Below, piece by piece: positions 9,411 through 53,792 of a DNA stretch of 64,000 nucleotides. The position numbers were made by a program, and so were the translations under genes. The notes below the pieces were generated by a model. That model had not been told where the DNA came from and made no database searches. It was given only the letters and a program-made list of their open reading frames with translations. Source of the DNA: Yuukianura sp. NJ FZ-2021 (taxonomy: Eukaryota); assembly GCA_046563655.1 (NCBI GenBank), contig CM102286.1, forward strand, positions 14,260,001 to 14,324,000, in the 5' to 3' direction. Within the stretch, counting starts at the first letter, position 1; each line of letters begins with the position of its first letter.

Positions 9411-10553
9411 TAATGTAAAATGACTCGTGTAATTTTGAAAAATTCAAAGGATTTCACACTTCAGGAAGAAAAAACCTCAACATTTTCGAAAAGAATTTTG
9501 TAAAGGCTAAAATTTAAAGTTGGTATACTCAAAAGTGCATTGTTTATTTGAACAATTTCTTGTACAAGAATGACAAGTGAATTGCGCATGTGCAGAAAAA
9601 AGTTCAAGAGTTGTACGCATACACGTGGGTTTTGACCTGCCTTTTTGATCTTTGAAGATCGCATTCCATCATGACATTTTGAAATTCAAAATGTTGATTT
9701 TGACACTCGAGATTTTAATTGTTGAACTTAAAGTTCATTTTGACATTCAAAATGAAAGCGGGATCTGTTTAAAAAGACATTTCAATCGTTTTTTATTTGA
9801 ACACATGACTTGGCGCTCTTATTTTTTGACACATGTCCGTTTGATTCTTGAGATTTCAAAAAATTGTTTTGAAAGGCGCCAAAGAACAAAAGGTGAAACA
9901 GTAACAATTAAGAGGACCTTGTGCTCAAAGTGCCAAGTACTGTAAACTTAAGTGTCTCAGATTTCAAAATTTCGACACAAAAAACTTTTTTTTTATAAAA
10001 AGTGGCAGTAGAAACCGGCAAAATCCAAAGTTACAAAGTTACGTCCAATTGCGCATGCTCACCACTGTAATTACAAAGTCAATTACTGTAATTTTCTAGT
10101 CGGATTTGAAAGAAAATGAGGATGAGGCATCGATTCCTTTCAAATCATTGTCTTATCTCAATTTTTTTGTATATTGAAGTGTGAAATTACTAAGTGTTGG
10201 TAATTACATTTTTTTTTCAAAATTTTGATTTTTTGTTTGTGAATATTGTCATGTGACCCCATGGGGGTGAGAGAAGGAATTCAACTGTGGGCAGGTCATT
10301 TTTTTCCGTGCGAAGATTTGCAATCTGACTGTCAAAATTCAAACTGCTTCTGCCTAGAAAATGCCAACTCATCTTCATTATCTTCTCATCTTTATTTGAT
10401 CTTCTACAGAGAGATCAATCATTTTCGCGCCAAAAATTTTGACATGCAGCGTCTTTCAAAAAGTAACGTTTTAATTTGACCGGTATACATTTTTCATTCT
10501 CAAAATTGCGGAATTTTGAATTCCTTCAAAGCAGAGCAAAGTCATGACATGTT
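9411..10553 (+). repeat. About 1.15-kb non-coding segment duplicated in direct orientation at 43551-44761
   Basis: Colinear high-identity match from taatgtaaaatga(c/g)tcgtgtaattttg to agagcaaagtcatgacatgtt. Confidence 0.93.
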
Positions 10554-16409: not shown

Positions 16410-16678
16410 GGTTCCATGCCATTGTGTCAATTGAATTGTATCAACTGCCATTGCATCAACTGAATTGTGTCAATTTGAATTGGATCAACGCTCAATTGTG
16501 TCAACGGCTACTTGTATCAACCAACGTAACCAAACCTAACCTAAGCTAAATTACGTATTACACTCGTCGACACAATTAGTCGTTGATACAATTGACCAGT
16601 TGATACAATTCTAGTTGACACAATTCAGTTGATGCAATGGCAGTTGATACAATTCAATTGATACAATGGCGTGCTACC
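16410..16678. mobile_element. Foldback MITE, family A, perfect 9-bp target site duplication
   Basis: CTAAAATTA at 16401-16409 and 16679-16687. Long inverted arms built from about 15-bp aattgtatcaact units. Central AACCTAACCTAA. Confidence 0.9.
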
Positions 16679-34374: not shown

Positions 34375-34605
34375 CTACATTTCTAATATAATTTCTCTAA
34401 AATAGCATAAGTGCATTGCACAATCGGTTAACAATAGATGTGTCATTTTTAATTCGTATACAGGTTTGTCTGCTTCCTCAAATTCCCTAATTTGACGCTC
34501 AAAATCAAAGTGCGCATGGACCAATTTGTATGTAACATTTGTCAAATCCCTCAATTCAGGCGACAAACTCACTAGTGATACTTGTGAACCTCTGAAAAAC
34601 TTCAT
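34375..34605 (-). CDS. Small orphan protein, MKFFRGS family copy 1 (76 aa)
   Basis: Intact ATG-to-stop ORF sharing its start and helical pattern with the 34999 ORF. Confidence 0.5.
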   Translation of the reverse strand: MKFFRGSQVSLVSLSPELRDLTNVTYKLVHAHFDFERQIREFEEADKPVYELKMTHLLLTDCAMHLCYFREIILEM

Positions 34606-34998
34606 TTCACTAAGTTTTAGAACAAAGTTTAAAAAAATATTAGAGAGATACTTGTCTTATTGTTTTTAGTCGACGTGTTCAAAGATTCTAGAGAAAACAG
34701 AACTTTGGAAAAGCTACTTTGGGAATGAGAGGTGAAAAAGTTGAAGTCCAATTTTCAACAATAGAAAACCCCTTTCTTCGCTGTTCCGTTTTAGACAAGG
34801 CTTAAAAATTTTGAAAATTGGTTTAAACCAAGGATTTGTGAAAATAAAAATTCATGCTGCTTCAGTGTAAAAATGGCGTCAAATAATTTTTAGTACGATT
34901 CCGAGCTCAGTTTTTCTTTGTAGAGATTTTGAAAAAAACTTTAAATACGAGCTAAATAAGTGTTTATATAAAAATTTTAAACTTTGTGATTAAGTTTT

Positions 34999-35223
34999 CT
35001 ACATAATTTTTCTAAACCTACGTAGCAGATAGTGAAGGCGTATAAAAATCTGCCAAAGTTCTTCTTCCTTTTGATCCAATTCGGCAGTGTCTTCCTTCGT
35101 CTGCTTTTGAACTATAATTTGTCTATCCAGTTCTACATATGCTTTGAACAACACAATTTCAAAGTCTTCCAATTCGTAGAATTTCTTCAACAAATCGGTT
35201 GCTGAACCTCTGAAAAACTTCAT
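34999..35223 (-). CDS. Small orphan protein, MKFFRGS family copy 2 (74 aa from ATG)
   Basis: Intact ORF MKFFRGSATDLLKKF...KAYVELDRQI...ELWQIFIRLHY. Confidence 0.5.
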   Translation of the reverse strand: MKFFRGSATDLLKKFYELEDFEIVLFKAYVELDRQIIVQKQTKEDTAELDQKEEELWQIFIRLHYLLRRFRKIM

Positions 35224-36144
35224 TTCAACTTGTGGACGTTCTTCGAAACTAGTTTTCAAAAAAAAGTTAAAAAGCGGTGTGTTAAATAAGAAGAGGAAAT
35301 GGTTATGCTTCTGTTCTCTTGAAATGTCTAAGGAGCTGCAATGGATTTAAAATTTCAAACATTTAAAACAGAAACTAAAGTAAAAAAGGGACAATTTGAA
35401 GTACAGGAATGAAAATCCTTTCAAAAATTTTAAAAATAACATTACAAAAATACCAAACAATGTCGAATTGCTCGTTTCTCTGTTTTAGCCTTAGGAAACG
35501 GTTTAAAAATTGTTTAAGACCGAGGTTGACCTATTTTTGTCTAAAGTTTTGGAAACGTTCACATTTTTTTAAATTGTGGATACAAATAATTTTTTTTGGA
35601 ATTTAATAGCTGTATTTACTATAGTATTATTCTAACATAGTATTAATATAGTATTAATAGTATTTCTAAATATAAAGTATTAATAGTATTTCTAATCTAA
35701 CACAACTTAATTACATTTAATGGCCCCAAATTTGCTCAAAATCAGTTTTTTTTCAAAACATATCGAAAAGTTTGTTCAAAATTTACCCCAAGGAGTCGCT
35801 TGTTCTAAAAATTTATAAGAGGTATGAATTTCACATGATGCGTCTTAATATATAGTTGTTTCAGGAACCCTATTTGAAAGTGAATAGACCAAAAGCTATT
35901 TTAGGTGTTTATTAAACGAATAACTTGAAAGAAATTATATTTGCTAAGAGAAATGTCATATTTACAAATTGGCACGATTCCTTGCCAGGAATAAAATATG
36001 GTAGATAAAAATGACGTACCTTTCAGTTAGTGTGACTTTTAATTTATCCCGCTACTACGGGTAAAAAATTACACTATAAATTAAACAAATTTTTTCAGCC
36101 TTAGAAGAGGTTCAAATCGTGATTAATATTTTTGAAATTTCTTG

Positions 36145-36590
36145 TTACCAATCTTCTTCAATATGCCTCAGTCGAATGTATATTTTCCAGAGCTCATCAA
36201 AGTGGAGGATGAGGTCAGTTGTACCTCTGCCTGTATTACCGACATTCAAAATTTTGTTATGAAGTGCGGTGTATGCTTTACCCATATCCCTAACCAAATT
36301 GCACAGGTTGTTGAGTTCAGCTACTCGTATTTGCTTCTTCATTACTCGCTCAACAATATTCACCAGACCTCAATTCTAAAGCGTTCGTTCAAGTTTTTCT
36401 TACTATAAGCTACTCAAAATTGAGGCTCATTTCCCAAACAAGAACCCATTTCAAAAATAGTTTTCGAGGCAATTATTTATGGACCATGCTAAACTCCCTA
36501 AGTTTTGAAACTGTTTCAAAATGCTTAACCACCAAACCCAACAATTTCTTCAACAAGTCGGTAGGTTGTCAAACCTCTGAAAAACTTCAT
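36145..36590 (-). pseudogene. MKFFRG family copy 3, 5' part frameshifted
   Basis: ATGAAGTTTTTCAGAGGT start, then a 4-nt insertion relative to copy 2 and stops. The 3' module KAYTALHNKI...ELWKIYIRLRH is open. Confidence 0.5.
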
Positions 36591-37068
36591 TTCAGCCTGT
36601 GGATTTTCAAAACTAATTTTCAACATATGACAGGAGTCTTTTATTATTTTTAAAAATGAGTTTAAAAACGTTGTTAACTCTTAACTTTAGTGCAAAAATT
36701 TTTAAACCCGAAACTCGGTAAAAAGGCTTTTAATATGTTTTATTCATTCCTATGCAGTGTGATAGTTCCACGACCATCCTTCAATTGTTTTTGAGAAAGT
36801 TTTAATCGTTATTTGCGGCTGCTTGGACTTTATGGAAACAATATAAAAATACGTCATATTTTGAAATTGACACAATTTCTTGCCAGGAATAAAATTTGGT
36901 GGATAAAAATGACTTACCGTTCAGTTAGCGTGACTTTCAACTTTTTTCGCTAATACGGATTAAGAAATTCCCTACAAATTAAAAAGAATTTTTTAGTCTT
37001 GGAGGAGCTTCAACCTGTTTAATTAATATTAATATTTAATATTATTAAAATAATATTTTTGAAACTTG

Positions 37069-37456
37069 TTACCAGTCTAGTACCATATGCCACAGCCGAA
37101 AGTATATGTCCCAGACCTCATCCAATATTAATTTGAGGTCAGTTTTGCCTCTTCCTGTTTCACCGACATCCCGAAATTTGTTACGAAGTACAGTGTATAT
37201 TTTACCCACATCAGTACACAAATCGAACATGTTTTCTAGTTCAGCTACTGTTAGTTGGTTGTCCATTACTTCGTACAACAATAGTCACCAGACCTAAATT
37301 GAGTTCGAAGGCGTTCCTTAAAGTTTTTCTTACTGAGCTATTCAAAACAGGTTTAAGGACCCATTTCAAAAATAGCTTTGCAGCCAATGGTTTAGGGACC
37401 ACGTTAAGTCCACATGATACTTTTTCAAAATATGTAACCACCCAACCAAGACGCAT
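37069..37456 (-). pseudogene. Family copy 4, diverged tandem duplicate of copy 3
   Basis: DNA similarity between about 35950-36545 and 36850-37450 including flanks. Module VAELENM...GRGKTDL...EVWDIYFRLWH. Split reading frames. Confidence 0.5.
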
Positions 37457-38825
37457 TGCTTAAAAGTGTATATGGTTATCGAAAATTTAAGGTACGGCAT
37501 GGGAGTGTTTTATTATTTTCCTTTTGCTTCTGCGCACTTTGGAACTGATGCTAGAACTTCGAAATTAAAAATCAATCTGTTCAAGGTGGGTATAACAACA
37601 ATCAAATTGTTTATTCTACACAAGGTTGTCCAGTTTTAATAGGAATTGGAGGAAAAAATTGTTTTCTTCCAAAAATATGAAGTAGTGAGGTACTGGACAA
37701 ATACAATCAGTTGCTATAGCAACCTTGAATCTATTGGTACTGTTCATTTTTTTTACTGTGCAGTTGTTGATAGTAATTTTTCGGGTGTCGTTCTTAGAAA
37801 CTGCTTAGGTTGAAGTGATTCAACCAGATCCACATGTATCCAGAAATTCAACTATTACGCGTATATTTCTTTTTAGTATTTCAAGCAGAAATTGAGAAGG
37901 CAATGATTTTAGCCTGCAGCTGAATCTGAAGAGGTAGCGCTATCGCTATTCGACTCTGAACCGTCTTCCCCTAGGGGAATTATAATCGGATTGACAGGAT
38001 TGTGAACAAACGTTTCGGCTAATTTTTCGAGCTCAAAAATCTTTTCTTCAAGTTCTTGGACATGTCTGCAACACTGAATCCACAACTGATGAATGCGTTC
38101 GGTTTGCAGCATTTCTCGAACAAGAATTAGGACGTGTTTAATCTTGGATGTAGTATTACGTCGTCATACTTCTGCTGAAAATATCAGCTAATTTAATAAT
38201 TACCAACCTCTAAACAAAAATGTCTCGAGACGGATTCGTTTCGTTTTCTTGTCGCATCATTTTCTCAACTTGCATTTCCGGTACAACAGCATTCTTTTTT
38301 CCAAGGACTCTGAGTTCTGCGACAGTCATCTCCCAGAACGACTCTTCGTCGGCTGGTATCGGCACATTTTTCTCGCAGAAGCAGTTCATTCAGCCACATT
38401 ATCGTAATCCACAGGAACTGCAGATGGATCTAAATGCTCCGGGGCGACTTGTCGTTTAAACTGTCGCTCTTCATTTACATTTTCAAGGTTAACAATCATT
38501 TTCTTTTCATCTGAAATCTTAGGTTTCCCCATTTTGCCAATCAAATTACTCCGAAAATAAAATCGCATTTTAAGAAAGAAGAATTTTCTAAAGTTTAAAA
38601 ATATTTTGATGATAACTTTTCCTTAACTCAACCTAATACGTTTCTATGAGTGACGCTTGAAAAATTACAATCAACAACTGCACAGTAAAAAAAAAATGAA
38701 CAGTAGTCGATCATTTTCACCATCTGTGTACCAACAAGTTTAAATAACAAGTGTAAATCTGGATGTAAAAAAACTAATACAACAACATGTTTAAAAAACA
38801 AGTTAAACCAAAAAAAAAAAAGGTT

Positions 38826-38895
38826 AACGCCTTTCCGACCCTGTAGCAATTTGTACTCAGGGTAGACTTCATGCTTAACCAACAGTCGGAAAGAA
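38826..38895 (+). pseudogene. Isolated decayed copy of oxidoreductase exon 4
   Basis: aacgcctttccgaccctgtagcaatttgtactca...catgcttaaccaacagtcgg matches about 41800-41865. Confidence 0.8.
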
Positions 38896-39769
38896 GATGC
38901 CAACGTATTACTTCATTTTTAGGTTTTTTAGGAATTAAAAAAAATTATTTATTTTTAAACTTTTTCGTTGTATTTTTAGCCTACAGCGTTCCCACGGAGC
39001 AACCGTTGTTTATGTTTGACCTGGCGTTTGTGACGTCACACGTCGAAAAAAAATTCAAAATCGACAAAATCTGAATTCATATTTGTGAACCCAAGTCCTC
39101 ATAATTCATTATCAATCAATTAACTTGATGATAGTGAGGTTATTATTGAGTCCCGCGTGACACGTACGTTTTCGTATTGTAATGAAGTTCGTCCGTTTCT
39201 CAACTTCCAAGTATCGTCACAATTTACATTTTCCTTTTGTGCTAATTCGCACATCAACTCATATTGATTGTCCTTTTTACATTATGTAAGTTTGGGCCGC
39301 TTATGGACCCAAACCAGGCAAAACTGGTTTATTCTCCTTTTTGTTACCAAATAGATTATGAGGAGTAACTTATTACTCCTGACTTCCGGTTTAGCGTTTG
39401 TCCCTGACCGTATAAATACGGCCAGAAGCCAGCCCAGTACAATCATTCAACTTCTTGCCTCTGCTCCGCTTGGAACAGAGTGACCTTTACTACTCGACAG
39501 TTTGACCTCTGCGAGGTCAAACTGCCTTTTCATTTTCTTTGAACTTTTAATAAAAAGTTATAGTTTTACCTTCCAACAAGGAAGGAAACAAAACTTGTAG
39601 TGTTGACCTTTGACCTTTATTTTATTTTAAGGCCATTTTCACTACAGTATTATTGGATTGCATTTGACAGTGTGTTTGTATGAGCTATGGGTTCACTCTT
39701 TTACATTAACGTACCTACATGAGAGTATGAAGTCATTCTGAGACAGAGGGCCCTTCAAATCAAAGGCAA

Positions 39770-40688
39770 ACCGTTGCGCAAGTTGTACAATCAGTTCAAG
39801 CCAATGCAATAATCACTTTTGACTAAATTTTGCTCCTGTGTATCGCCGGAACCATGCAGCTCTTGGTCTACTGGAGAACAGTTCAGTCAACATAGTCGCA
39901 AGCATTTTAATCTGACTTCTCACGGGACAAATCATGGCTGGTTGTTTCGGAGCAGTCGTTCGGGTCAACAAGTTAGTGAAAACTGGAGTCGTGAGTAAGC
40001 TGATTGGGCTGACAATTTGCTTGTTAATTGGCTTCATATTTGGAGTCTGCGTTACTTCTGCGCTGTTTGCTGGTCCATGGGCTTCTCTGAAACATTGGCC
40101 AACTGATAAAATGCTGGGACGAGGAGGATCAGAAGTAATGCTGTTGGTGCTTTTGTGGCAATTTCTTCGGGTACTGGGGTCACTCTGTCTATTTTGGCTG
40201 GAAATGCTGCATCGGTTGTGGGAGTGGCCATTTCAGCGTCTCTTCTTCCTCCTGCAGTCAACTGTGATATGTTCCTGGGAATGAGTGCCCAGATTACCGT
40301 AAAATTCCAATTGGCTGGCTACAACCCTTATGCGACTCCTTGTGACAGTTACGTTGGAGACGGGAACCAATCAGATCATCTCTTCCGACGCGCACGCGTG
40401 AAGGCTACGACGTTCTGGATTTTTACTGCAAAAATGTCGTCATGGAGTACGGCCTTCTCGGAATCGTCAGTTTAGGTCATCATCGTCAAAATTATACTCA
40501 TTCTCATCAGTGTATTTCTCATTTTGAAACTCAAGGAAGTTGCGCCTCACACAACACGACAGAACGTAAATCGATTTTGGAAGGAAGATCTCAAGGTCAT
40601 GCGAGAGTACAACAAGACTCACGGCAGTTTCAATAAGCAAGCAATTCTTGCTGAATTGGCGGTACACATAATGCTGCTGAAATTTTAG
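39770..40688 (+). pseudogene. DUF389-family membrane protein pseudogene
   Basis: Across frames: TVAQVVQSV...TFD*, ALGLLENSSVNIVASILI*, GLTICLLIGFIFG, WPTDKMLGRG, GNAASVVGVAISASLLPPAVN, LKLKEVAP...FWKEDLK. Stops at 39824 and 39913 plus several frameshifts. Confidence 0.85.
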
Positions 40689-41351
40689 ACTCTCCTCTAT
40701 TAAACTTATTGTATACTCATTAATTAAGAAATTCGTTTTTTTTTCGATTTGTGACGTCATTTCCACAAAGTTAATGGCTTAGCAACCAAGCAACCGCGGA
40801 AAGCGTCACCTCTAATATTCCAAGGTAACTAAACAAAATGACACACCGCATTACTGAGGTACCGCTCGGTATAATTCCATTTTCCAGTTCTAAAACCGAT
40901 ATAAACTACAGGATGGATGACTGCGTACAATGGGTGGTTGAATGAATTTACTTTGTACTCCAACCGAACGAAAACGTTTGCACAGAAAAGTTAAAAACAA
41001 ACAATCCACCCCACTATATACTTACGCAAAAAAAAACTATGATTTATGATTTTAATTAAAATTAAAATCATTAAAATCATTAAAAATTATGATTTCTTAC
41101 ATAATTAACTAACGTAGTTAAGTTTTTTAGCCTTACGAAAACTAAGGATAAAGAGTAGGTGTCGAAGTTGACCTCAAGTAAAAACTGAAGTTACTTGTTA
41201 CCACGGTCACACTCTTCTAAATAACAAAGGTCACGGAAGGTCACGAGATTGCGACCAGTGTCAAGTGTTTTGTGTATTTGTTTAATGATATTCACACAGT
41301 AGTTAACTTGTTCTTTTCAGGATTGGTCGAAAAGTTTACTAAACGTTGAAA

Positions 41352-42506
41352 ATGTTGGACAAACCGCCTGAACCGAAGAAACCCATAACAATTTCAATTG
41401 TTGGAGCAGGAGAGCGGTAAAGTTCAAACTCTTTGGTGTGACCTTTGATTTATAATTCCAATCTAAACTGAATAATTGTACTTGTCAGAGGCCAGATTTA
41501 TGCTAGCTATGCCACTTTCTTTCCAAAATGGCTCAAGGTCGTTGCAGTCGCTGAAATCCATGAGGGCAAGAGACAGAAAATGGCACAAGTAAATCTTGAA
41601 AAACAAAATTCAAAAATAGTGGGCAAGTTTTAGAATTTAAACTTGTGGATTCTTTGTCAGGCATACAACATTCCTCCAGAGAATGTCTTCGGAGATTGGA
41701 AAGAGGTGACTTTACAGATAGTATTTGAATTTGTATCACAATTTGGATACACTTTTTGATGACCTTTGACCTTTTAAATTTTTCAGCTGGCTGCGCGAGA
41801 ACGCCTTTCCGACGCTGTAGCAATTTGCACTCATGATAAGCTTCATGCTGAGCCAACAGTCGGTTAGAACATGGCGGCTTTTACTTGATTCAATTTTTTG
41901 AAAAAGTTTCGAAAAACTTTTTTTTTGAATTGGCAGCATTTGCAAACCTAAAGTACAACATTTTGTTGGAGAAGCCAATGGCTGTGAGCTTAGAAGACTG
42001 TAGAAGAATAGTAGAAGCGATTGAATCCAACGGAGTGTTGTTTACCGTTGGTCATGTGCTGCGATACACCAAGTACATGAGCGTGGTCATGGACATTATT
42101 CAGTCCAAGGTCATTGGTGACATTGTCAACATCCAGCAACTGGAACCAATTGGATTCAAACACTTTGCTCATTCCGTACTGTCTTTTTTCTCAAAATTTT
42201 GAAATTCTAACATTTTCAGTGATTTTTGTTTCAAAAGTTTGTTCGAGGAAACTGGAACAACGAAGCAAAGTCGACGTTTGCTCTCATGTCAAAAACTTGT
42301 CACGATTTGGACTTGATTCGGTACATGATGGGGTCAAAGTGCATGGTCAGTCTGGAATTGACAAATTTTGAAAATTTCGAACAAAATTTGAACAATTTCG
42401 AAGAAAAACTTGTGTAATTTCAACTTCCATTTTAGAAAGTGTCGTCGTTCGGGACTTTGAAACACTTTCGGAAAGAAAACAAGCCGAGTGCAGCCGAAAG
42501 TGCTGT
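41352..42506 (+). pseudogene. 3'-truncated inverted duplicate of the Gfo/Idh/MocA oxidoreductase (first 7 coding exons)
   Basis: 41080-42559 is the near-identical reverse complement of about 51687-53154, including the upstream region. Frame and splice sites look intact but the last four exons are absent. Confidence 0.9.
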
Positions 42507-42601
42507 GTAAATTCAAAAAAATGCTAAATTTTCCAAAAATCCACAAGTTTTACAGAAATAATAATAATTTCATTTTCATAATTTCATACATAAAATAAAA
42601 T

Positions 42602-42678
42602 AATTTCATTTTCAGTAGAATAATAATAATAATAATAATAATTATTATTATTATTATTATTCTACTGAAAATGAAATT
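42602..42678. repeat. Near-perfect 77-bp palindrome with (TAA)7/(TTA)6 core
   Basis: aatttcattttcagtagaa(taa)7(tta)6ttctactgaaaatgaaatt. Confidence 0.95.
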
Positions 42679-43182
42679 CAGAATCTGATGATTCTTGGAT
42701 TCAATTTCTGAATTTTGGTGAATAAGTGCAGGTTCAATTTACTCACAACAACAAAAAATTTGTTCGGATGAGAAATTAATTGTGGAATTAATTACGATTT
42801 GTTAAGTTAATTATATTAACAAAATTAGTTGAGTAGAATAACTGAGTTAATATAACATTCCAGGATTGGAAAATTTAACAAGCTTAGGGTATGGATGCAA
42901 TCAAGTTTTTGAACTTTTACCGTAAGGCAGAAACAAATTTCAGAAAGGGGTTGAAACTTATTTTTGTAAGACTTGTATTAATAATTTAGTAAATTAATTG
43001 TAGTTGTCTTAAGTTAGTTAATTAAGTTTAATTAATTAAGTTAGTTTAATTAATTGAAGTGACTAACTGAGGCCCAACAGTCGTTGTGAGGTGTCCAATA
43101 CTTGAGTATCTTCCTTATTCCGAATGCCGTTCGTGAGTTCCTGTAGACATGTGCAGTGACATTGGGTTTGAATGGGCAGTAT
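42660..43182 (-). pseudogene. Inverted copy of the nanos terminal codons and 3'UTR
   Basis: Reverse complement of about 48361-48910. Encodes YCPFKPNVTAHVYRNSRTAFGIRKILKY with the stop TGA changed to TGG. Confidence 0.93.
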
Positions 43183-43331
43183 ACAGTTACAGTCTGCTTA
43201 TACGTAAATCATGCTGTCCTTCAATATGATTTAGTGTCACAAAAAAAATGGATGATCTTCAACTATATACAATTCAATAATGAGACGATAATTCCGTAAC
43301 TGTGATTTGATTGGAAGATGGAGCTACAAAC

Positions 43332-44908
43332 TCAAAATGCCAGGATTGCATTTTGCAGGTTGGTGATCATTCCCGTCAGAGTCTGAGCATCTTGTACAAG
43401 TTGAGCATAATCTTGCACCAAAACTCTTCGTATCGCGATTTCTGTGTTAATTCCAGATAGTGCTTCTCTTAAGGCGTCAAGCAAACTTTGCAGTTCTGCC
43501 AACACGCCATTTCTAATAATCGGATCCGGACTTCGCTGAAAAATTAAAAATAATGTAAAATGAGTCGTGTAATTTTGGAAAAAAAAATCAAAAGATTTCA
43601 CACTTCAGGGAAAAAAACCTCAAGAATTCATCAAGATTTTCAAAAGGGAATTGACCAAAACTTTAAGTTTGAAGTTGGTACTCAAAAGTGCATTGTCTAT
43701 TTGAACAAGAATGACAAGAGTAGGATCAGAGAGCTATGCTTATGCAACTGCGTTGTGCTCATGCGCATAGAAAAATCGAGAGTTGTGCTCATACACTGTG
43801 CAAAACAACGTGGATTTTGACCTGCCTTTTTGATTTTTGAAAATCGCATTCCATCATAACATTTTCAAATTCAAAGTGCTGATTTTGACACTCGAGATTT
43901 CAATTATGTTGAACTTAAAGTTCATTTTGTCATGAAAGCGGGATCTGTTTAAAAACGACATTTCAATCCTTTTATTCATTTAAACACATGACTTGGCGCT
44001 CTTATTTTTTGACACATGGCCGCTTGATTCTTGAGATTTCAAAAAAACTGTTTTGAAAGGCGTCAAGAAAAAAACAAAAGGTGAAACAGTAACAATTAAG
44101 AAGACCTTGTGCTCAAAGTGCCACGTACTGTAAACTTAAGTTTCTCAAATTTCAAAACAAGAAAACCCTTAAAAAAAATTTTTTTTAATAAAAAGTGGAA
44201 GTAGAAACCGGCGAAATCCAAAGTTACAAAGTTACGTCCAATTGCGCATGCTCACCACTGTAATTACAAAGTCAATTACTGTAATTTTCTAGTCGAATTT
44301 AAAAGAAAATGAGGATGAGGCATCGATTCCTTTCAAATCATTGTCTTATCTCATTTTTTTGGGGGGTTTTGAAGTGTGAAATTACTAAGTGTTAGTAATT
44401 ACCTTCTTTTTTTTCATAGTTTTGAATTTTTTTTGTGAATGTTGTCATGGGGTAGTAAAATGACCCCATGCGGGGGTGAGAGAAGGAATTCAAATGTGGA
44501 CAGGTCATTTTTGTTCCGTGCAAAGATTTGCAATCTGACTGTCAAAATTCAAACTGCTTCTGCGCAGAACATGCCAACTCATCCTCATTATCTTCTCATC
44601 TTTATTTGATCTTCTACGCAGAGATCAATCATTATGGCCTTAAAAATTTTGACACGAGGCGTCTTTAAAAACGTAACGTTTTCATTTGACCGCTAAATAT
44701 TTCGTTCTCAAAATTGCGGAATTTCAAAATCCCGCAAAATAGAGCAAAGTCATGACATGTTTGCGGAAGATATGAAATCTAGAAAAATTCTAACGTCCAA
44801 AACGAAATTCCTTACCATCAGCGATATGTGGAGGTCCATCTCCGATTGCTTCAAAAATCCACGATCAACAATTTCTTGGAGAACAGCTCGCAAATAGTTG
44901 AGTGCCAT
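43332..44908 (-). CDS. Two-exon orphan protein, 98 aa, predicted helical/coiled-coil
   Basis: Exon 1 44908-44816 (MALNYLRAVLQEIVDRGFLKQSEMDLHISLM, donor GTAAGG). Exon 2 43535-43332 (acceptor TTTTTCAG; RSPDPIIRNG...NAILAF*). Phase-0 join, AAAATG start context. Confidence 0.65.
43551..44761 (+). repeat. Copy of 9411-10553 inside the intron of the 98-aa orphan gene
   Basis: Direct colinear match with small indels. Confidence 0.93.
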
Positions 44909-45764
44909 TTTGTAGTAAGTTGTGTAAAGTAGTAGTTTACTAGGGCAAATCAATTGATGCTGAATGGGACCTGTCGACTTGGAATATGGATCAGAAATGG
45001 GGAGCAAACGCCTTTTCCAGTCACTAGTCCAGTGAACTAGTCAAGGTCATGTCCAAATAGTCTAGTCACAGACATTTCATGTAAAAATTTTATTACTATT
45101 TCAAAGTTAAGAAGCAACAGAAGTCAAATTGAATATTACCTGAAGCATTAACTTTGATAATTGGAAATGATTTGTCCGTGTGTTTCACGAACAACTCATT
45201 TCCATTTATCAAAGCCGTTGATAAACTAAAATTTTCCAAAGTTTCCAGAAAAAAAATGGAGCGATTCATTTGGTTTGACATGTAGAGTAGATTCATAGTT
45301 GTGCAGTGTAGTTAAAAGTAAAAAATATAATTGAATTTTCAAAAGTGTACAAACTTCCCGTCGTACATACAATTCTTGGACACGAACGATGGAATACCTT
45401 CAACATTTGATTTTCCCTCTAGCATGTGCTTCTTTTCCAGTTCCTGCTGAATCCATGCTAATCCAAGAAAAACAAAAGCCCAACTGAGGGTAAACAGAAA
45501 TAAAACCATTGTCATGAGGTGAAGAAATTGATTTTAAATTGCATGCAATTGGCATGGCAACACAGCGTAACATTTACGTAAGTTGTTAGTTACTTTGGTT
45601 GTTGAACTCTGAAAGTGGAGAAAAAGCAACAGCCGAGCTTTCAAAGTTCATTTTTAACTTTGAGTTGCAACTCCACATCACGCAGGAGCAAGGTCAGCCT
45701 TAGGTCATCGCCAATTTCTGACATTTTGGAAATTCCTTTCGACTTTTCGTAAAACCAAACCAAA

Positions 45765-46721
45765 ATGCCGGTCACCGTTGGCCTCAACCCGCTTCCTTTT
45801 CCAAATTTGGCCAACAATGAGCACTGTCAGGAAATGTGTGACGTAAGTGACTCAAAAAATGGAAAAGCAAAAGTCAAGATCAAAATTTTGACTTTTCTCT
45901 TCTGTTTTCAGGTGCCAGCGGAGATGCTGCGTTTGCGATGCGATCCGTTCATCCGACTCGTTTCGGTAACATGGTTTATTTTTGAAAAGAAAAATGTACA
46001 TGAAGTTTGAAATTTCAAATTTTTTGAATTTTCCCGCCAAATCAGATCCCGACCAAGAGCTACTTGTTCAAAAGTTGTGTCAATCCGTGTGCTCCGCAAG
46101 ACTCTCTGGATCGTGCCTTGACTGCTTGCTACGACCATCATCGGTGAGTTGCTCAAAAAATCCAAAATTTTTAACAATTTTACACTGCGCATGTGCAAAA
46201 ATGTATTTTTTTTTAACTTTCAGTCAATTTTGGGTTCCGAAACCTGGAGTTGTGATGCAGTGTGAGACGTATCGTCTCTTTCCTTTTGGACGGTGAGTTG
46301 ACGCAACCAAAATTTTGAAGTTACTGCGACATTTTTTGAGGTAATTGATTTTGGTTTCAGTGCACAAGCTCGTTTGTGTCGCCTGCAGTGTCTCCCCGAC
46401 TGTCCGCTGACTCAACCATGTCGTAAGACTAAACACTATGTAGTTTTTTTGTTTTAAAATTTTGAATTTGCTTTGTCATTTTGAACATGACTATACATTT
46501 TACTTTCAGCGACACAAACTCAAGTGTGCGTCAACAGTGAACCGTACCGCAACGACAGCAATCACATGAACTGCAGCATTGGCGGACCACACATCTCCAA
46601 CAGCGGTAAAATTCAAAATTCAACACTTTTGCTTTCAAAATTTGATTGTAAATTTAAATTTTCAAAATTTTCAGCTCGTGGTTATTCTCGTTCTTACGCC
46701 GGATCGTTCTACAATTGCTAA
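45765..46721 (+). CDS. CFAP276: CFAP276/C1orf194-like (DUF3695) ciliary/flagellar protein, 167 aa
   Basis: Seven exons (45765-45842, 45912-45965, 46046-46143, 46224-46292, 46361-46422, 46510-46605, 46675-46721) splice in frame to 504 nt. Motifs DPFIRLVSIPT, PCAPQDSLDRALTACYDHH and C-terminal SIGGPH...GYSRSYAGSFY resemble C1orf194 as I recall it. Confidence 0.8.
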
Positions 46722-47021
46722 ATTCTGGAACCACAAGACGACAAAATCATTTCAAGTAAACTCAACCAAAATTCCAAAACTTTTCTTTCAAAATTGTTGG
46801 AGCGAAACAAGAAATTTTAAGGGAGAATATCATACTACTAAAACGTTAACTCACAAAATATTTTTGAACAAGAAATAAACTTTCAACATCAGTACAAAAG
46901 AGTTTGTCGTTGACTTTTAAGTAAAAGATTTTTTTTTGAAAATCTGAACGCCATCTATTGGCAGTTTTTGAAAATTTGTGTTGCGAGTGGCGTCCAACTT
47001 TGAATTTGCCGCTATAGCGAA

Positions 47022-47184
47022 GAACAAAGAAGAGCGTCTCTGATTGGTCCGCTGAGAACAAAGAAGGCCTTCTCTGATTGGTTCACTGGGAACAAAGAAG
47101 ACCTTCTCTGATTGGTTCACTGGGAACAAAGAAGACGTTCTCTGATTGGTCAGGTAAGAACAAAGAAGAGCCTCTCTGATTGGT
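47022..47184. promoter_or_regulatory. Five 34-bp tandem units, each AACAAAG plus CTGATTGGT (inverted CCAAT box), upstream of nanos
   Basis: Units start at 47022, 47056, 47090, 47124 and 47158. Inr-like TCAGTT at 47245; ATG at 47354. The repeat is certain, the regulatory role is inferred. Confidence 0.7.
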
Positions 47185-47353
47185 CTATTTTTTCTTTGTC
47201 TGAAATTTTCAACATTCCTTTGTTCTTTTGACTCGAGGGCTTCGTCAGTTCCATTTCAGCCGTCAACCAGAGCACATCTAAACTTTTTCAAGGTTTTTCA
47301 AAATTTTGAAAAGTGGTTTCTAAACCGATTTTTTTTTTTAAAAACTACCAACC

Positions 47354-48448
47354 ATGGACCCCATTGCCATCATTGATCTGCCAAAGGAACTACTCCAGTC
47401 TGCCATGAAAGTGTATCCAGGGATACTCCGTCTGTCTCTAACTGTATCAGATTCTGCTTCCGAAAAATCCTGTCATCGCAAGGTAAGCGCGGGAAATTCA
47501 CTCCGATTACAAAATTATTCCAAATTTTTTAGAAATTGCCAAAAACTAAAATCGTTTTTTTGAAATTAAGTCACTCTAATTGTTTTTTTTTCAGGAAGTG
47601 ACCCTGGAGCAGTTCGGACTGAAAAACAAAGACGAGTCAACTCCTGGAGTTTCTGGACAAAGGCCAACCCACCTAAACATGGACAAAGGTCAACCAGCAA
47701 ATGAAGGCTTGAGGTCAAGGTCAACCGGAATCGGAATGGACTTGCGTCTTGGCCAACTCAGCCACATCATCCGTCAACTGCTCGGTGTGACATCGCAAGA
47801 CGGTACTCCGGATCGGTTCATCGGATCGGAATTCGGCTGGAACCAGGACGAAACCGGTAAGTTCGAAATGAAATATGTAATTAGGCTAAATCTTAGTCAC
47901 GAAGATGTCACGAGGTCATGTGTCAACTCGGCAACTAACAAAATTCTTTGTGTTTTTTTTCAGAATCGTGGATTTACTGCGATGGAAAAGGCAGCAAGGA
48001 TGACACTTTTCCGCAATTTGGCGGTAAGTTTGAATTTCAACTCTGGAAGTTTTTTTAAATTGTAATTTTTTGAATATGTGTTTGATTTTTTTGTTGTGTT
48101 TGAACAGGAGCGGACTACTACGGAGGATGGACCACCCACTACCGTGGCACCAACTTGGACCGAGATGGCAGTTGCAGAAGTTCCGGAACTCGTCGACGAG
48201 GCCGACGGACGGAGTGCACTTACTGCAGGAGCAACCGAGAAACCATCCAGTTCCAGCGGTCACACTCACTCTACCGGTTTGGTCGTGTCGAATGTCCGAT
48301 TCTGCGCAAATACATCTGTACCGTCTGCGGAGCTACTGGAGACTTCGCACATACGCTCAAATACTGCCCATTCAAACCCAAGGCCACTGCACATGTCTAC
48401 AGGAACTCACGAACGGCATTCGGAATAAGGAAGATACTCAAGTATTGA
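47354..48448 (+). CDS. nanos: Nanos-family CCHC zinc-finger RNA-binding protein, 263 aa
   Basis: Exons 47354-47482, 47595-47856, 47964-48023 and 48108-48448 join in frame (792 nt). CTYC-x12-H-x9-CPILRKYICTVCGATGDFAHTLKYCP. Confidence 0.92.
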
Positions 48449-48904
48449 ACACCTCACAACGACTCATCGGCATAAGTTAGTCACCTCAATTAATTTAATC
48501 ACTAACTCAATTAATTAATTATACTTAACTAATTAACTTAAGACAACTAATTAATTTAGTAAGATATTAATACTAGTCTTACAAAAATAAGTTTCAACAC
48601 TCTTCTGAAATTAGTTTATGACTTACCGTAAAAGTTCAAAACCTTTATTTGTATCCATACCCTAAGCTAAGCTTGTTAAAACTTTTCAATCCTGGAATGT
48701 TAGCTTAATTTAGTTCTCTTAATTTAGTTTAGTCTACTCAATTCATTTTGTTAATTTAGGTTAATAAAATTAATTAATTAATTTCTCATAAAACAAATTT
48801 TTTTGTTGTGAATAAATTGAACCGGTTTGTATACACCAAAATTAAGAAATTGAATCCAAAAATCATTCCAAAATCATCAGATTCAGAATTTCATTTTAAG
48901 TAGA

Positions 48905-49370
48905 ATAATTGTCAATGTAAAATTTTGTTTCTTTGTTTTTTGAGCTTTTGACTGATTTAATTTTAAGTTTAAAGATTAATTTGGAAGTTCTTGCTGTTAT
49001 TTGAATTTGGAAACTGTGAGGACCTTGTTTGTTTTTCTGGAACTCTCGGCGCCAAAAACGTAGATGTGTGAATCTTTAAGAAAAAGTTAAAGTTAATTAC
49101 TAATTAGCTTAACAATTAAGTGAATTCAGACACACCAAATACTTCCTGCGGACAAGTGAGGATATTATCTTTGTTTCCAGTTCCACGTTCCAAAAATTCG
49201 GATCCAAAATTCAGATTTTGAAAAAACTGCTTTCAAAAACAAAATTTGGTTTTCAAAAAAGTTTTTTAAAAATGGAGTCAAGTGAAGCAGAGAGGCTTTT
49301 AACGACTGTTGTTTCAGCATGAAGTTTATTCTGAGTACTTTCTGCAGCGTCAGAACAACGTTCTCACTCA
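48905..49370 (-). pseudogene. Third, deleted and diverged oxidoreductase copy
   Basis: Direct match to about 50710-50978, then 51155-51200 (internal deletion), then an exon 4 fragment at about 49300-49370 matching about 52365-52435. Confidence 0.88.
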
Positions 49371-49399
49371 GTCATCCATCCAAAAAAAAACGTCATAGG

Positions 49400-49803
49400 C
49401 AGTTTTTCCGAAACCAGTATTTGACCATTCCTGCTTGTTTTTTCGTTTATTTTTAGAAATTTAAACAAGAACAAGAATTTTTGAATCGAGATGGCCCACA
49501 GGAATTTAAAAAAAAAGAAAATTCAAGTTGAAAAATAGTTAAATTAATAGCATAAAGCTATTACAATAGTATTATACATATATAATTATAAAATTATTTG
49601 AAAAAAGTAGATTTTTAAAGTTATAGGAGAGTGAGTAGTCGAACCGGAAGAAATTTATTAAACTTTTCCTACTCCTTTGGACTTTGTTTCAACTGAAAAC
49701 AGATCTGACATTTTTTTTGGTATTTTTAATTATTTATTTATTTGTGTTATGCAAATAGTCCTCTGTTTATTTGTGCAGTATTTCAAAATTTCAGGAAATT
49801 CGT
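49400..49803 (+). repeat. Diverged copy of RGS 3' flank/UTR (about 32291-32720)
   Basis: Shared blocks cagttttt(a/c)cgaaaccagtatttgac, aaacaaga, tttgtttcaact, tatttatttatttgt in the same order. Confidence 0.8.
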
Positions 49804-50769
49804 GATCGCCATTTCTTTTTGCGATGTCAGAACTCATCCAGCACTTTTTGCATTTGGAGTGCATTGTTGTTCAAAATGATTGTTTGATTAATCGATTGAA
49901 GGTAGTCTGCATCCTTGTCTAAGTGCTCACAATTGCCTATAGTTCGGCATGCCCTATTTGGCCAAAAGTAAAATGGCCAAAAAGTGAAAAGCTCAGAAAT
50001 TAAATGGTCAAATAGTAAAACGGGTGTTGACCAATTCACCTGGAACGTTGTCTACACCTTTCATTGCATAGCTTGATGATAGCTGTACGCAAATGCTGTC
50101 GTAGCGTACGTAGAGTCTTCATTTCTTCTGACCGCATCAATCCCTGATTTCCTTCCTAAAAACAAATTTTAAAATTCCTCATTTAAAATTTTGGGTGCCA
50201 GAGTGGTAGAATGCAACTTTTGTATAAATCAAAATCCAAATTTTAAGAGTTACGTCAGGCTTGGTTATTTAGGCACAGGAAATTTTTTTTTTCTAAGAAC
50301 ATATTAAGGTTAGGATGAAAACAAATTGAATTCAATGTCTTTACCAGCAACATCAGCGTTGATTGTAATGAATCGTTTGTGTATTTCTCCGTTTGAAACT
50401 GTCCAAGAAGTTGATAAAACTAAAATTTTCTGAACTCGAGAGACAAAATTTGTGTTTGGAAACTTGGGAAAGTTTATAAAAAATCCAAGGTGACCCCTTT
50501 AAGTACCCCTTAAGTAAGTCCCTCAAATTTCAAAAATAGCACTTCAAAAATATCAAGGTTCAACTCTCCTTCTCCTATTCAACCAAAATTCCAAACTTTA
50601 TTTTTCTCAAAATTCTTGGACTGAAACAAGGCATTTCAACGGACATGCAGTGATCGCCAGCTAAAAGAATTACACCCAAAAATCACTAACTTTGTTTAAA
50701 TTTGAATTACAATAATTCTCAATGCAAAATCATTTTTTTGTTCTTTTTTTTTAAATTTTGGTTTAAAGA

Positions 50770-52876
50770 TTAATTTGGAAGTCCTTGCTGTTGTTTGAAC
50801 TCTGAAATTGTGATGACCTTGTTTGTTCTCCTGGAACTCTCGGCGGCAAAAACGTAGATGTGCGAATCTTAAAAAAAATCAAGGTTAATTACTGACTAAC
50901 TTAACAATTAAGTGAATTCAGGCATACCAAGTGCTTCCTGTGCACCAGTGAGGATATACTCCTTGTTTCCAGTTGCGCATGCGTAGATGAAACTCCGCAT
51001 GAGGGCATGGTCACCTCCAAAATGCCCGCTTTGTGGCAGGTCGGCGTAAAAGTCGTTTGGAATTTGGCGAATGTCAATGACTTTGCGTTGATTTGTGAGA
51101 AAATCAAAGTGAATAAGTTCTTGTGACCCCAAATCACAAGTCAGTTCTCCCAGCGTTCCAAAAATTCGGATCTAAAATTCAAATTTTGAAAAAACTACTT
51201 AAACAAGGTAGGGCGATGCTCAAGGGTTGAGCATTGGTCTTCTAAAAAAATTGAACAAATTTTTAGCAGTAGTTGATTCATTACTTGTCTGTCGCATTGA
51301 AGTTGAGTGAAGGCCACCATGCTGAAACTAGCTGTGGCGCCATTTTCAAATTCAAAATTCACAACCTGGTTGTCACAGACATCATTCTCTGCTTCATAGA
51401 CGCATTTCCCATAGTCTCCTACCTCCAACGCATGTGTCAAGTTTTCAATGTCTGAAACAAGGTCAAAGGTCAAATTTTTTCAGCCAAAATTTAAAGTGAT
51501 CGGAATTGCTGTCATACCGATAGTCCCAGAAGGTACGACGACACTGATTGGCCAGCCAGTCACTCCTTGTTCCACAAATCGTTCCAGATAAATTTTCTTC
51601 GCAGAGTAACAGCATGATCGTTCATAGTCACAGTGAAGACAGTTTCTAAAAAGTGTCAAAAAGTTGAAATTAAAGAAATTTCAAAATTTCTGTAAAATTT
51701 TGAATTTTTTGACTTTACACAGCAGTTCCGGCTGCACTCGGCTTGTTTTCTTTCCGAAAGTGTTTCAAAGTCCCGAACGACGATACTTTCTAAAAACAAA
51801 CGTTGAAATTATCCAAGTTTTTTTTTTTAAATTGTTGAAATTTTGTTTGAAATTTTCAAAATTTGTCAATTCCAGACTGACCTTGCACTTTGACCCCATC
51901 ATGTACCGAATCAAGTCCAAATCATGACAAGTTTTTGACATGAGAGCAAACGTTGACTTGGCTTCGTTGTTCCAGTTTCCTCGAACAAACTTTTGAAACA
52001 AAAATCACTGAAAATGTTTGAATTTCAAAATTTTGAGAAAAAAGAAATTACGGAATGAGCAAAATGCTTGAATCCAACTGGTTCCAGTTGCTGGATGTTG
52101 ACAATGTCACCAATGACCTTGGACCGAATGATGTCCATGACAACATTCATGTACTTGGTGTATCGCAGGACATGACCAACGGTAAACAATACCCCGTTGG
52201 ATTCAATCGCTTCTACTATTCTTCTACAGTCTTCTAAGCTCACAGCCATTGGCTTCTCCAACAAAATGTTGTACTTTAGGTTTGCAAATGCTGCCAATTC
52301 AAAAAAAAAGTTTTTCGAAACTTTTTCAAAAAATTGAATCAAGTAAAACCTGGCATGTTCTAACCGACTGTTGGCTCAGCATGAAGTTTATCATGAGTGC
52401 AAATTGCTACAGCGTCGGAGAGACGTTCTCGCGCAGCCAGCTAAAAAATTTAAAAGGTCAAAGGTCATCGAAAAGTGAACCAAATTGTGATACAAATTCA
52501 AATAATAAAGTCACCTCTTTCCAATCTCCGAAGACATTCTCTGGAGGAATGTTGTACGCCTGACAAAGAATCCACAAGTTTAAATTCAAAAAACTAGGCT
52601 ACCTTTTTTGAATTTTGTTTTTCAAGATTTACTTGTGTCATTTTCTGTCTCTTGCCCTCATGGATTTCAGCGACTGCAACGACCTTGAGCCATTTTGGAA
52701 AGAAAGTGGCATAGCTAGCATAAATCTGGCCTCTGACAAGTACAATTATTCAGTTTAGATTGAAATTATAAATCAAAGGTCAAAGGTTAAACCAAGAAAT
52801 TTGAACTTTACCGCTCTCCTGCTCCAACAATTGAAATTGTTATGGGTTTCTTCGGTTCAGGCGGTTTGTCCAACAT
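50770..52876 (-). CDS. Gfo/Idh/MocA-family NAD(P)-dependent oxidoreductase (YteT-like), complete multi-exon copy
   Basis: Rossmann [44 protein letters not shown]...[15 protein letters not shown]. About 11 short exons ending ...QQQGLPN*. Confidence 0.92.
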
Positions 52877-53792
52877 TTTCAACTTTTAGTAAACTTTTCG
52901 ACCAATCCTAAAAAGAACAAGTTAATATTAACTACTATGCGAATATCATTAAACAAATACACAAAACACTTGACACTGGTCGCAATCTCGTGACCTTCCG
53001 TGACCTTTGTTATCTAGAAGAGTGTGATCGTGGTAACAACTAGCTTCAGTTTTTACTTGAGGTCAACTTCGCCTCCAACTCTTTCATCCTTAGTTTTAGT
53101 AAGGCTAAAAAACTTAACTGCGTTAGTTAATTAATTAAGTAATCATAATTTTTAAACTTAACTTTAAAAAAATCTTAAATTTTTACTGTAAATTTCGTTT
53201 AGATAACGGCGACACGCAAAGTGACCCTACCGGATTTAAAAATGGCGCGAAACTAAAAAATTTGAAATTGCACGAGATAATGGTGAAAAAAAAGAAGGAA
53301 GGGCAAAGGAGAAACTTTGCACTTGTTGGAATTCGCACTTTCTCTTTCTCTCTCTTCTCCGAGTGAGAACATTGATTAAACAGATTGTTTAATTTTAATT
53401 AATAATCTAAACTGTAAGTTATCTGTCGTTATCTAATTCTTATCTCGATTTTTTATGTTACAGTAAATCTACACTATAAATCAAAACCGTATCAACAGCG
53501 TTCTAGGTACTGTTAAGCTGATTTTCCACAATTTCTTTGAAATCACTTTAAAAAGCTTACTTTCTGTCCCAACGAATGAGCCTGAATCTAAAATGCAAAA
53601 CAATTGAGTTGATTACTTCTTTGTTATTTTGTTTACAGCACTGGCGGTAGAAGCTTAACTGTGAATCCGGATTTGGGTGTTAGCCAATTTGTCACATTCC
53701 TGATTTTTTGCAATACCAGGTCACCTTCTACAGACCAGTTTGAGCAACCGCTGGGCATCCTGATTCTACGGAACAATTCATTAACAACGGAA

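Follow-up and report, generated by a model that had tools for sequence, protein, structure and literature searches.

Local duplications that ignore gene boundaries leave gene fragments behind and place the sequence of one gene behind the open reading frame (ORF) of another, as described for partial and chimeric duplicates of Drosophila yakuba, in which duplication-deletion constructs can alter expression and are mostly lost (PMC5460883). In Lymnaea, duplication plus inversion yielded the antiNOS-1 and antiNOS-2 units, antisense to their parent gene at about 80% identity (PMC2528163). Drosophila hairpin RNA (hpRNA) loci such as hp-ODox1 are young loci with inverted repeats that arose from fragments of other genes and are able to target the parent (PMC10317233). 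For the springtail Folsomia candida, inverted intrachromosomal gene duplications were reported as palindromic collinear blocks, with 11 palindromes (PMC5490193). Here we investigated a 64,000-nt stretch of contig CM102286.1 (assembly GCA_046563655.1) of Yuukianura sp. NJ FZ-2021, called the window below, to which all coordinates refer. It contains a truncated copy of an oxidoreductase gene (copy A) followed by a copied 3′ end of a nanos-family gene, both inverted relative to their sources.

The locus resembles each of these systems in part. Like the D. yakuba duplicates, it joins fragments of different genes across their boundaries; those cases are tandem, still segregating and accompanied by RNA-seq, whereas the one in the window lies inverted, has diverged by about 10% at neutral sites and is known from DNA alone (PMC5460883). 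With antiNOS it shares the inverted unit antisense to a parent gene, but antiNOS is a demonstrated transcript that blocks nNOS translation, while in the window the evidence is DNA, the promoter would be the putative one of a neighbouring gene and a poly(A) signal precedes the antisense part (PMC2528163). In hpRNAs, a single transcript contains the two arms and yields Dcr-2-dependent small interfering RNAs (siRNAs), whereas the arms considered here are 5.2 kb apart with genes between them (PMC10317233). The Folsomia blocks comprise several whole genes, in contrast to the 2-kb remnant with its truncated gene in the window (PMC5490193).

We consider it probable that the locus records a history of duplication, i.e. 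that what is left there is a duplicate gene which once functioned, together with a nanos tail carried along as a passenger, rather than an evolved regulator. Self-BLAST of the window and alignment revealed two inverted arms. In the first, positions 41080-42540 match 53155-51686 (93.2% identity over 1478 columns, E=0), and the match can be extended to 42560/51687 if a 20-nt gap in intron 7 is allowed; this arm comprises 272 nt 5′ of the ATG together with the first seven exons of an 11-exon, 446-aa Gfo/Idh/MocA gene. In the second, 42656-43182 match 48909-48361 (80.6% over 567 columns, E=8e-148), covering the final 28 codons with the stop codon (88 nt), the 3′ untranslated region (UTR) and the 3′ flank of a 263-aa zf-nanos gene. 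The copy and its sources are made up as follows.

41061..41085, left junction, 9-nt unit ATTAAAATC repeated 2.8 times (Tandem Repeats Finder); homology to the source begins at 41080
41080..41351, plus strand, copied upstream region and 5′ leader (putative core promoter), 16 mismatches in 272 nt against 53155-52877
41352..42506, plus strand, copy A, exons 1-7 of a Gfo/Idh/MocA gene with 234 open codons and intact GT/AG; the seven exons are 41352-41416, 41489-41588, 41661-41705, 41787-41862, 41937-42175, 42238-42345 and 42436-42506
42507..42560, plus strand, what remains of intron 7 before the deletion breakpoint, with a cryptic acceptor AG at 42554-42555
42656..43182, minus strand, copy of the nanos 3′ end (88 coding nt, 3′UTR, 3′ flank), sense to an orphan gene and antisense to read-through from copy A
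47354..48448, plus strand, nanos-family gene of 263 aa (exons 47354-47482, 47595-47856, 47964-48023, 48108-48448), with AATAAA at 48763 and 48811 downstream
48361..53155 (4795 nt), source segment of the inverted duplication as implied by a single-event model
50770..52876, minus strand, copy B, full 11-exon oxidoreductase gene of 446 aa, parent of the first arm
48893..49399, minus strand, copy C, older decayed oxidoreductase remnant whose tail faces that of nanos, with 72 mismatches to the parent over 448 nt
38826..38917, plus strand, copy D, remnant of 92 nt from oxidoreductase exon 4 (82% identity)

Both mirrored arms had been described in the initial annotation of this DNA (41080-42559 with 51687-53154; 42660-43182 with 48361-48910) and were recovered by self-BLAST (41080-42560 with 53155-51687, 93%; 42656-43182 with 48909-48361, 81%), as was its statement that the oxidoreductase copy has lost its own terminal exons, copy A holding exons 1-7 of 11. 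Its "intact promoter" holds as far as upstream DNA was indeed copied; this amounts to only 272 nt, and the promoter itself is putative. Within the copied part, GGTCAC words, which we take to resemble a fly housekeeping motif, occur 114-148 nt 5′ of the ATG, three in copy A and two in the parent; a YY1-like word 372 nt 5′ of the copy B ATG lies outside the copied segment. Within 15 kb there are four oxidoreductase copies or remnants plus one remnant of the orphan gene. Searches of the own genome placed oxidoreductase exon 5 at two sites and the nanos tail only at the two sites given, with one additional 46-nt AT-rich match.

Selection on copy A was assessed from its differences to copy B, which number 23 in 704 exon nt, 35 in 477 intron nt and 16 in the 272 upstream nt. 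All 7 donors and all 6 acceptors of copy A are intact, and its frame contains neither a stop nor a frameshift. There are 16 synonymous differences at 153 sites against 7 replacements at 549 (dN/dS 0.11, Fisher P=8e-7). Had copy A been neutral from birth, about 29 replacements would be expected, whereas 7 were seen on both branches together (P=1e-6; conditional test P=0.001); hence, unless the differences are allelic variation older than the duplication, copy A was constrained for most of its life and neutral for at most about a quarter of it (point estimate). By comparison with springtail outgroups, three of the seven replacements are derived in A according to both, one is seemingly derived in B and three are uninformative. 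Judged from these sequences, copy A was probably a functional second gene, maintained by purifying selection, until it was truncated late. The closest named relatives of copy B are proteins of Allacma fusca and Folsomia candida (P0001, P0003; about 60% identity); beyond these two springtail proteins, the named matches of the oxidoreductase were bacterial or archaeal in a small candidate set of 97.

The divergence of the two arms is compatible with a common date. Synonymous sites of A and B have diverged (16/153) to the degree seen in substitutions of the nanos UTR copy (44/420; Fisher P=1.0), so that arms of 93% and 81% identity can share one age. Copy C is older than the split between A and B (72/448 versus 67/902, P=2e-6) and lies inside the source segment, as a model of one duplication needs. 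Positions 48910-51686 of that segment (2777 nt) have no counterpart in the copy. In place of it stands a short stretch of unusual composition.

42561..42655, junction filler of 95 nt with 8% GC, made of short reverse-complement patches of the end of the nanos piece plus AAT/ATT runs
42602..42678, perfect 77-nt palindrome with 38-bp arms, predicted to form a 36-37-bp RNA stem on either strand (z -12.7)

The palindrome had gone unmentioned in the initial annotation and was found by self-comparison beside the arms noted there. It is almost entirely AAT/ATT and matches nanos only beyond the poly(A) signal of the latter. Palindromes with a stem of at least 25 were absent from 600 kb of control DNA, taken as three 200-kb blocks of the own genome, partly satellite (one block includes a 58-kb array of ~127-nt units at C1:5088505-5146841 of G000). 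The filler patches (13 and 20 nt) are reverse complements of the nanos-copy end and carry the C allele of the copy, not the A of nanos, as snap-back synthesis at a break predicts. Such templated patches are expected from microhomology-mediated end joining of the synthesis-dependent kind (SD-MMEJ), a form of break repair with snap-back synthesis (PMC5728401). As in SD-MMEJ and alternative end-joining, short stretches lying within ~30 nt of the break appear to have been copied in direct and inverted orientation over several rounds; the filler differs in its length of 95 nt and its expanded AAT/ATT runs, and a single junction cannot fix the pathway (PMC5728401).

We suggest the following course of events. 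The oxidoreductase and the nanos paralog would originally have lain tail to tail, and tandem copying would have given copies C and B. A single inverted duplication of 48361-53155 may then have carried the nanos tail, copy C and the whole oxidoreductase with 272 nt upstream to a position 150 nt 3′ of the stop of the orphan gene. There, purifying selection would have kept the new oxidoreductase copy functional as a second gene, while the nanos tail drifted neutrally as the passive 3′ flank of this copy. A late break would have removed 2.8 kb, taking exons 8-11 together with everything as far as the nanos flank. Fold-back synthesis, starting repeatedly from the nanos-copy end, could have closed the break and left the AT-rich filler and the 77-nt palindrome. 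If transcribed, copy A would most likely be spliced to 42556, stop at 42596 and be polyadenylated near 42620, encoding a 248-aa fragment without the C-terminal half. Copy A would then be a young pseudogene, and any antisense RNA over the nanos piece would be leakage. The locus would exemplify an ordinary but well-dated life history of a duplicate gene, from birth by inverted duplication through purifying selection to death by a deletion with a templated scar.

In keeping with this history, local inverted pairs of at least 300 nt within 20 kb recur, occurring four times in the 600 kb of control DNA, two of them without remote copies in the sample. Several observations weigh against it. The two control pairs without remote copies are smaller (359 and 487 nt) than the pair in the window. 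Non-coding divergence between A and B (51/749) is below that of the nanos UTR copy (44/420, the latter with 17 gaps; P=0.03), and two events or a later gene conversion, for which the identical A/B runs of 155 and 124 nt might speak, are possible. The low dN/dS could reflect differences that existed before the duplication between two working alleles, or selection on the truncated product itself. Finally, the junction between nanos copy and orphan gene is also present in a sample of ~5% divergence (X4 record 26) and has thus persisted. A two-event origin had also been considered from the 93% versus 81% identity of the arms; it was set aside since half of the first arm is coding, and is still possible in view of P=0.03.

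Five sequencing runs were listed as containing the stretch, all of DNA and none recorded as RNA, which speaks neither for nor against expression. Contigs from four of these DNA runs (X1-X4) were compared with the window, joints with a side of less than 30 nt being set aside as repeat artefacts. X1-X3 come from one sample, which may be the source of the assembly; X4 comes from a separate study and differs from the assembly by ~3-7% at this locus according to its contigs. Part of this comparison bears on the orphan gene next to the nanos piece.

43332..45515, minus strand, orphan gene model of 223 aa with four exons (45515-45355, 45225-45140, 45036-44816, 43535-43332), drawn from splice signals and reading frame
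44920..44953, stretch of 34 nt within exon 3 of the orphan gene, absent from contigs of three of the four runs (X1, X2, X4); its loss would cut the frame to 132 aa

A first alternative, which we regard as rather unlikely, assigns the nanos piece to this gene. The insertion would have split the orphan gene from its own poly(A) region, and its mRNA would run into the nanos copy as a 3′UTR ending at ATTAAA 43050/43032 or AGTAAA 42743; with surviving nanos control elements, it would come under post-transcriptional control of a germ-line type or compete for the proteins binding the nanos UTR. The arrangement itself is as such a borrowed 3′UTR would have it: the orphan ORF, whose protein has a hydrophobic N-terminus, ends at 43332 and is followed from 43182 by the nanos piece in sense, 150 nt further on the same strand. 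The intervening 150 nt contain no AATAAA or ATTAAA, only ACTAAA at 43235, and the minus strand beyond the insert has ATTAAA plus a T/GT-rich tract as a plausible original end. Record 26 of X4 (42853-43460), from another study's sample, bridges the junction with sides of 330 and 278 nt, and in mouse the Nanos3 3′UTR restricts a foreign ORF to germ cells (PMC2823788). The initial annotation had noted correctly that read-through from copy A would converge on this minus-strand gene and had overlooked that the nanos piece is sense to it. Against a captured control region, both nanos AATAAA signals were lost in the copied tail, ATTAAA arises in 70% of shuffles and the UTR copy drifts at the neutral rate. 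The 34-nt deletion, an existing frameshift allele found in X1, X2 and independently in X4, suggests that the gene may be dispensable. The gene model also lacks credible relatives: 0 of 319 candidates passed in a search with exon 4, there was no usable Atlas match, and searches of the own genome returned only the gene itself. Two weak matches to exon 3, a bacterial repeat protein and a reverse-transcriptase fragment, were rejected as chance. If the gene is expressed, it is about an even chance that its transcript physically includes nanos-derived sequence, which is likelier than that this inclusion matters.

According to a second alternative, the truncated oxidoreductase itself was kept, either its 248-aa protein with the NAD(P)-binding domain and part of a second domain or its mRNA having a role, and the arms came from two events. 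In its favour are the dN/dS of 0.11, the open frame and the intact splice sites, and the junction supplies acceptor, stop and AATAAA in order. Splicing from exon 7 to the cryptic acceptor at 42556 (a 49-nt intron) is predicted to give 248 aa, ending with TAA 42596-42598 within AATAAA 42594; an alternative acceptor at 42616 would give 258 aa ending at 42686. The N-terminal Rossmann domain PF01408 is recognized in copies A and B with 31.6-31.7 bits (cut-off 24). In addition, an A-like contig of X4 (record 25, 42126-42562) differs from copy A by 6 in 437 nt while neighbouring DNA differs by 3-7%; between A and B this interval has 24 differing sites and 24 gap columns. On the other side, about 210 of 446 residues are gone, including the C-terminal domain PF02894 of full-length relatives; family members have ~420-480 aa, whereas copy A ends after codon 234 plus 14 or 24 filler residues and lacks the complete C-terminal part. 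A recent truncation yields the same dN/dS, and the X4 contig ends at 42562 and so does not demonstrate the truncation in X4. No spliced product of the locus appeared in a protein search with exon 5 of copy A, in which 81 of 97 candidates passed. We consider retention of the fragment unlikely, and favour a once-working duplicate that died by deletion.

The initial annotation had proposed an antisense or siRNA regulator of nanos that arose by the duplication. In this third possibility, plus-strand RNA from copy A would run through the filler and the nanos piece and pair either in trans with the mRNA of the nanos paralog or in cis with the converging orphan RNA, causing a translational block or siRNAs by which this paralog would be tuned. 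The stretch of closest pairing is short.

43096..43158, minus strand, 63-nt block identical to nanos 48385-48447 (by alignment)

The orientation is right, as read-through past 42656 would be antisense to the paralog, and the upstream DNA and splice sites of copy A are intact. The breaks at 48414 and 48435 in X1 and X2 contigs that cover nanos agree with a block of 80 nt occurring twice (48385-48464) rather than the 63 nt of the assembly, which supports two copies in the reads. Accordingly, the identical block is probably 80 nt long (43079-43158) in another allele of the copy, one with TGA. The TGG that replaces TGA at 43095 had been offered as a copy-specific marker; the difference exists in the assembly and is probably polymorphic rather than fixed. 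This perfect block of 63-80 nt covers the last codons and stop of the paralog and is specific for it, the longest exact match to the four other nanos loci being 10-13 nt. The predicted duplex has -592 kcal/mol compared with -909 for a perfect one, and the AATAAA at 42594, expected by chance in 77% of shuffles, stands against a strong hairpin.

Lymnaea antiNOS reportedly derived from an inversion inside a copy of its target gene. Its two validated antisense pairs are 80% identical, the same identity as in the window (PMC2528163). Copy A and the orphan gene do converge, their stops being 736 nt apart with 3′ ends that are predicted only. Nevertheless, the cryptic acceptor, the in-frame TAA (42596-42598) and the AATAAA (42594-42599), whose presence near 42594 had been noted from the start, all precede the nanos piece, so that termination of copy A there is plausible from sequence, though not assured. 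The 520 nt or so of complementarity claimed for the read-through correspond to a 527-nt segment, of which ~450 nt would face nanos mRNA if cleavage follows AATAAA 48811. Pairing comprises exact blocks of 63, 24 and 21 nt, and only 48 of 507 21-mers are exact, 44 of them within the 88 coding nt. In all, copy and nanos differ by 47 mismatches and 17 gaps, with 44 differences at 420 UTR sites and 3 at 88 coding sites. The UTR copy has drifted at the neutral rate; for the coding tail, 3 differences compare with ~5.6 expected under neutrality (P=0.19, a test of low power), a lower divergence that constraint on nanos alone predicts. The layout of an hpRNA was not found either: distances of 5.2 kb and 9.1 kb separate the arms from their counterparts, with two further gene models in the shorter interval, they are not part of one short transcript, and the sole local palindrome is that of 77 nt. 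Until the late deletion the nanos piece would have lain 2.8 kb behind the end of copy A, and its presence is already accounted for by its having been the 3′ flank of a duplicate that was full-length at the time (dN/dS 0.11).

The proposed target is also not the nanos gene as such. The window gene has two CCHC zinc fingers near its C-terminus (PF05741, E=6e-20, 71.6 bits against a cut-off of 27), and zf-nanos matches numbered six at five loci among 12 candidates scored in the 99-Mb genome. These lie at C1:7775982, C4:13531452, C8:2878060 and C5:10244510 (L006, L007, L009 and L010/L011) and at 48215-48370 of the window. The window gene is divergent; its nearest-looking paralog is 0.77 Mb off on the same contig, and the others look more canonical by eye. 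Together with L007 it looks like a divergent pair. On its orthology to the germ-line nanos of insects, a search gave only four distant matches. A "regulator of nanos" at this locus would therefore be a regulator of one divergent paralog among at least five, not of the sole germ-line determinant. Taking these points together, we judge the antisense proposal unlikely. A search with an exact 22-nt pattern of the shared block gave 0 matches in metagenome contigs, and the literature searched, from which most subscription papers are missing, yielded no description of an antisense copy of nanos from a springtail. A 34-nt unit repeated 4.9 times at 47016-47185, each with a reverse CCAAT word (GATTGG), lies 170 nt 5′ of the nanos start codon.

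There is also a slim chance that the copied tail is read both ways, by the orphan gene in sense as a borrowed 3′UTR and by copy A in antisense, giving double-stranded RNA whose 63-80-nt block would silence a single lineage-specific nanos paralog while leaving the others untouched. If true, a paralog-specific switch that arose by duplication would act on a germ-line regulator in an early-branching hexapod. If either RNA-based proposal held, nature would have transferred a nanos 3′ end to a new gene or set it against the gene from which it came.

An assembly artefact in the form of a fold-back chimera is very unlikely and has next to no chance of being right: no contig among those listed bridges the joint at 42562-42689 and X3 contigs cross the shared blocks unbroken, but the arms differ by 7% and 19% with many gaps, unlike a chimera, and contigs specific to the nanos copy (X1), to copy A (X4) and to the orphan junction (X4) exist. 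The first of these, X1 record 1, has 0 differences in 332 nt to the nanos copy (42689-43020), and its length would put its end at 42649, where a 31-letter graph must break at the palindrome. The repeat at 42562-42689 was skipped in contig placement; it is on this joint between the arms that the antisense idea depends. X3, which has no cover at the listed sites 43523-45151 and is unbroken across the shared blocks, hints at a haplotype without the copy; the hint was not counted, since contigs show presence only and an X2 contig likewise crosses A/B-identical runs. X3 contigs exit the window at 45170 and cross 47107-51228 unbroken. In X4, the A-like contig at 42126-42562 differs from the assembly by 6/437, compared with 34/352 for a contig on copy B (51740-52101). 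Presence/absence or reciprocal-loss polymorphism is possible from these patterns.

Further features lie around the duplicated segment. A remnant related to orphan exon 2 and its flanks is located at 50449-50269 on the minus strand, between copies B and C (125 of 200 columns, score 81 against a shuffle maximum of 43). Intron 3 of the orphan gene is filled by a 1.2-kb low-copy element (43540-44761), which has a second copy at 9400-10553 with 83% identity and occurs on C3 as two partial pieces. A small cysteine-rich multi-exon gene, divergent from the orphan gene, occupies ~45780-46760 on the plus strand between the latter and nanos. To the left of the duplication lies a DUF389 gene remnant (39916-40685, plus strand) in several frames, with no evident introns and with many differences and small gaps in contigs. 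Short elements of very high copy number were observed at 51201-51243, 40821-40861 and 49960-50010, where summed contig depth rises up to ~100-fold over the flanks; the first of these is situated in intron 9 of copy B, and a contig that skips 51195-51281 suggests that it is polymorphic. A tandem family of three to four related short orphan frames extends over 34378-37459 on the minus strand, and a 259-nt imperfect self-inverted repeat with 82% identity is present at 16415-16673.

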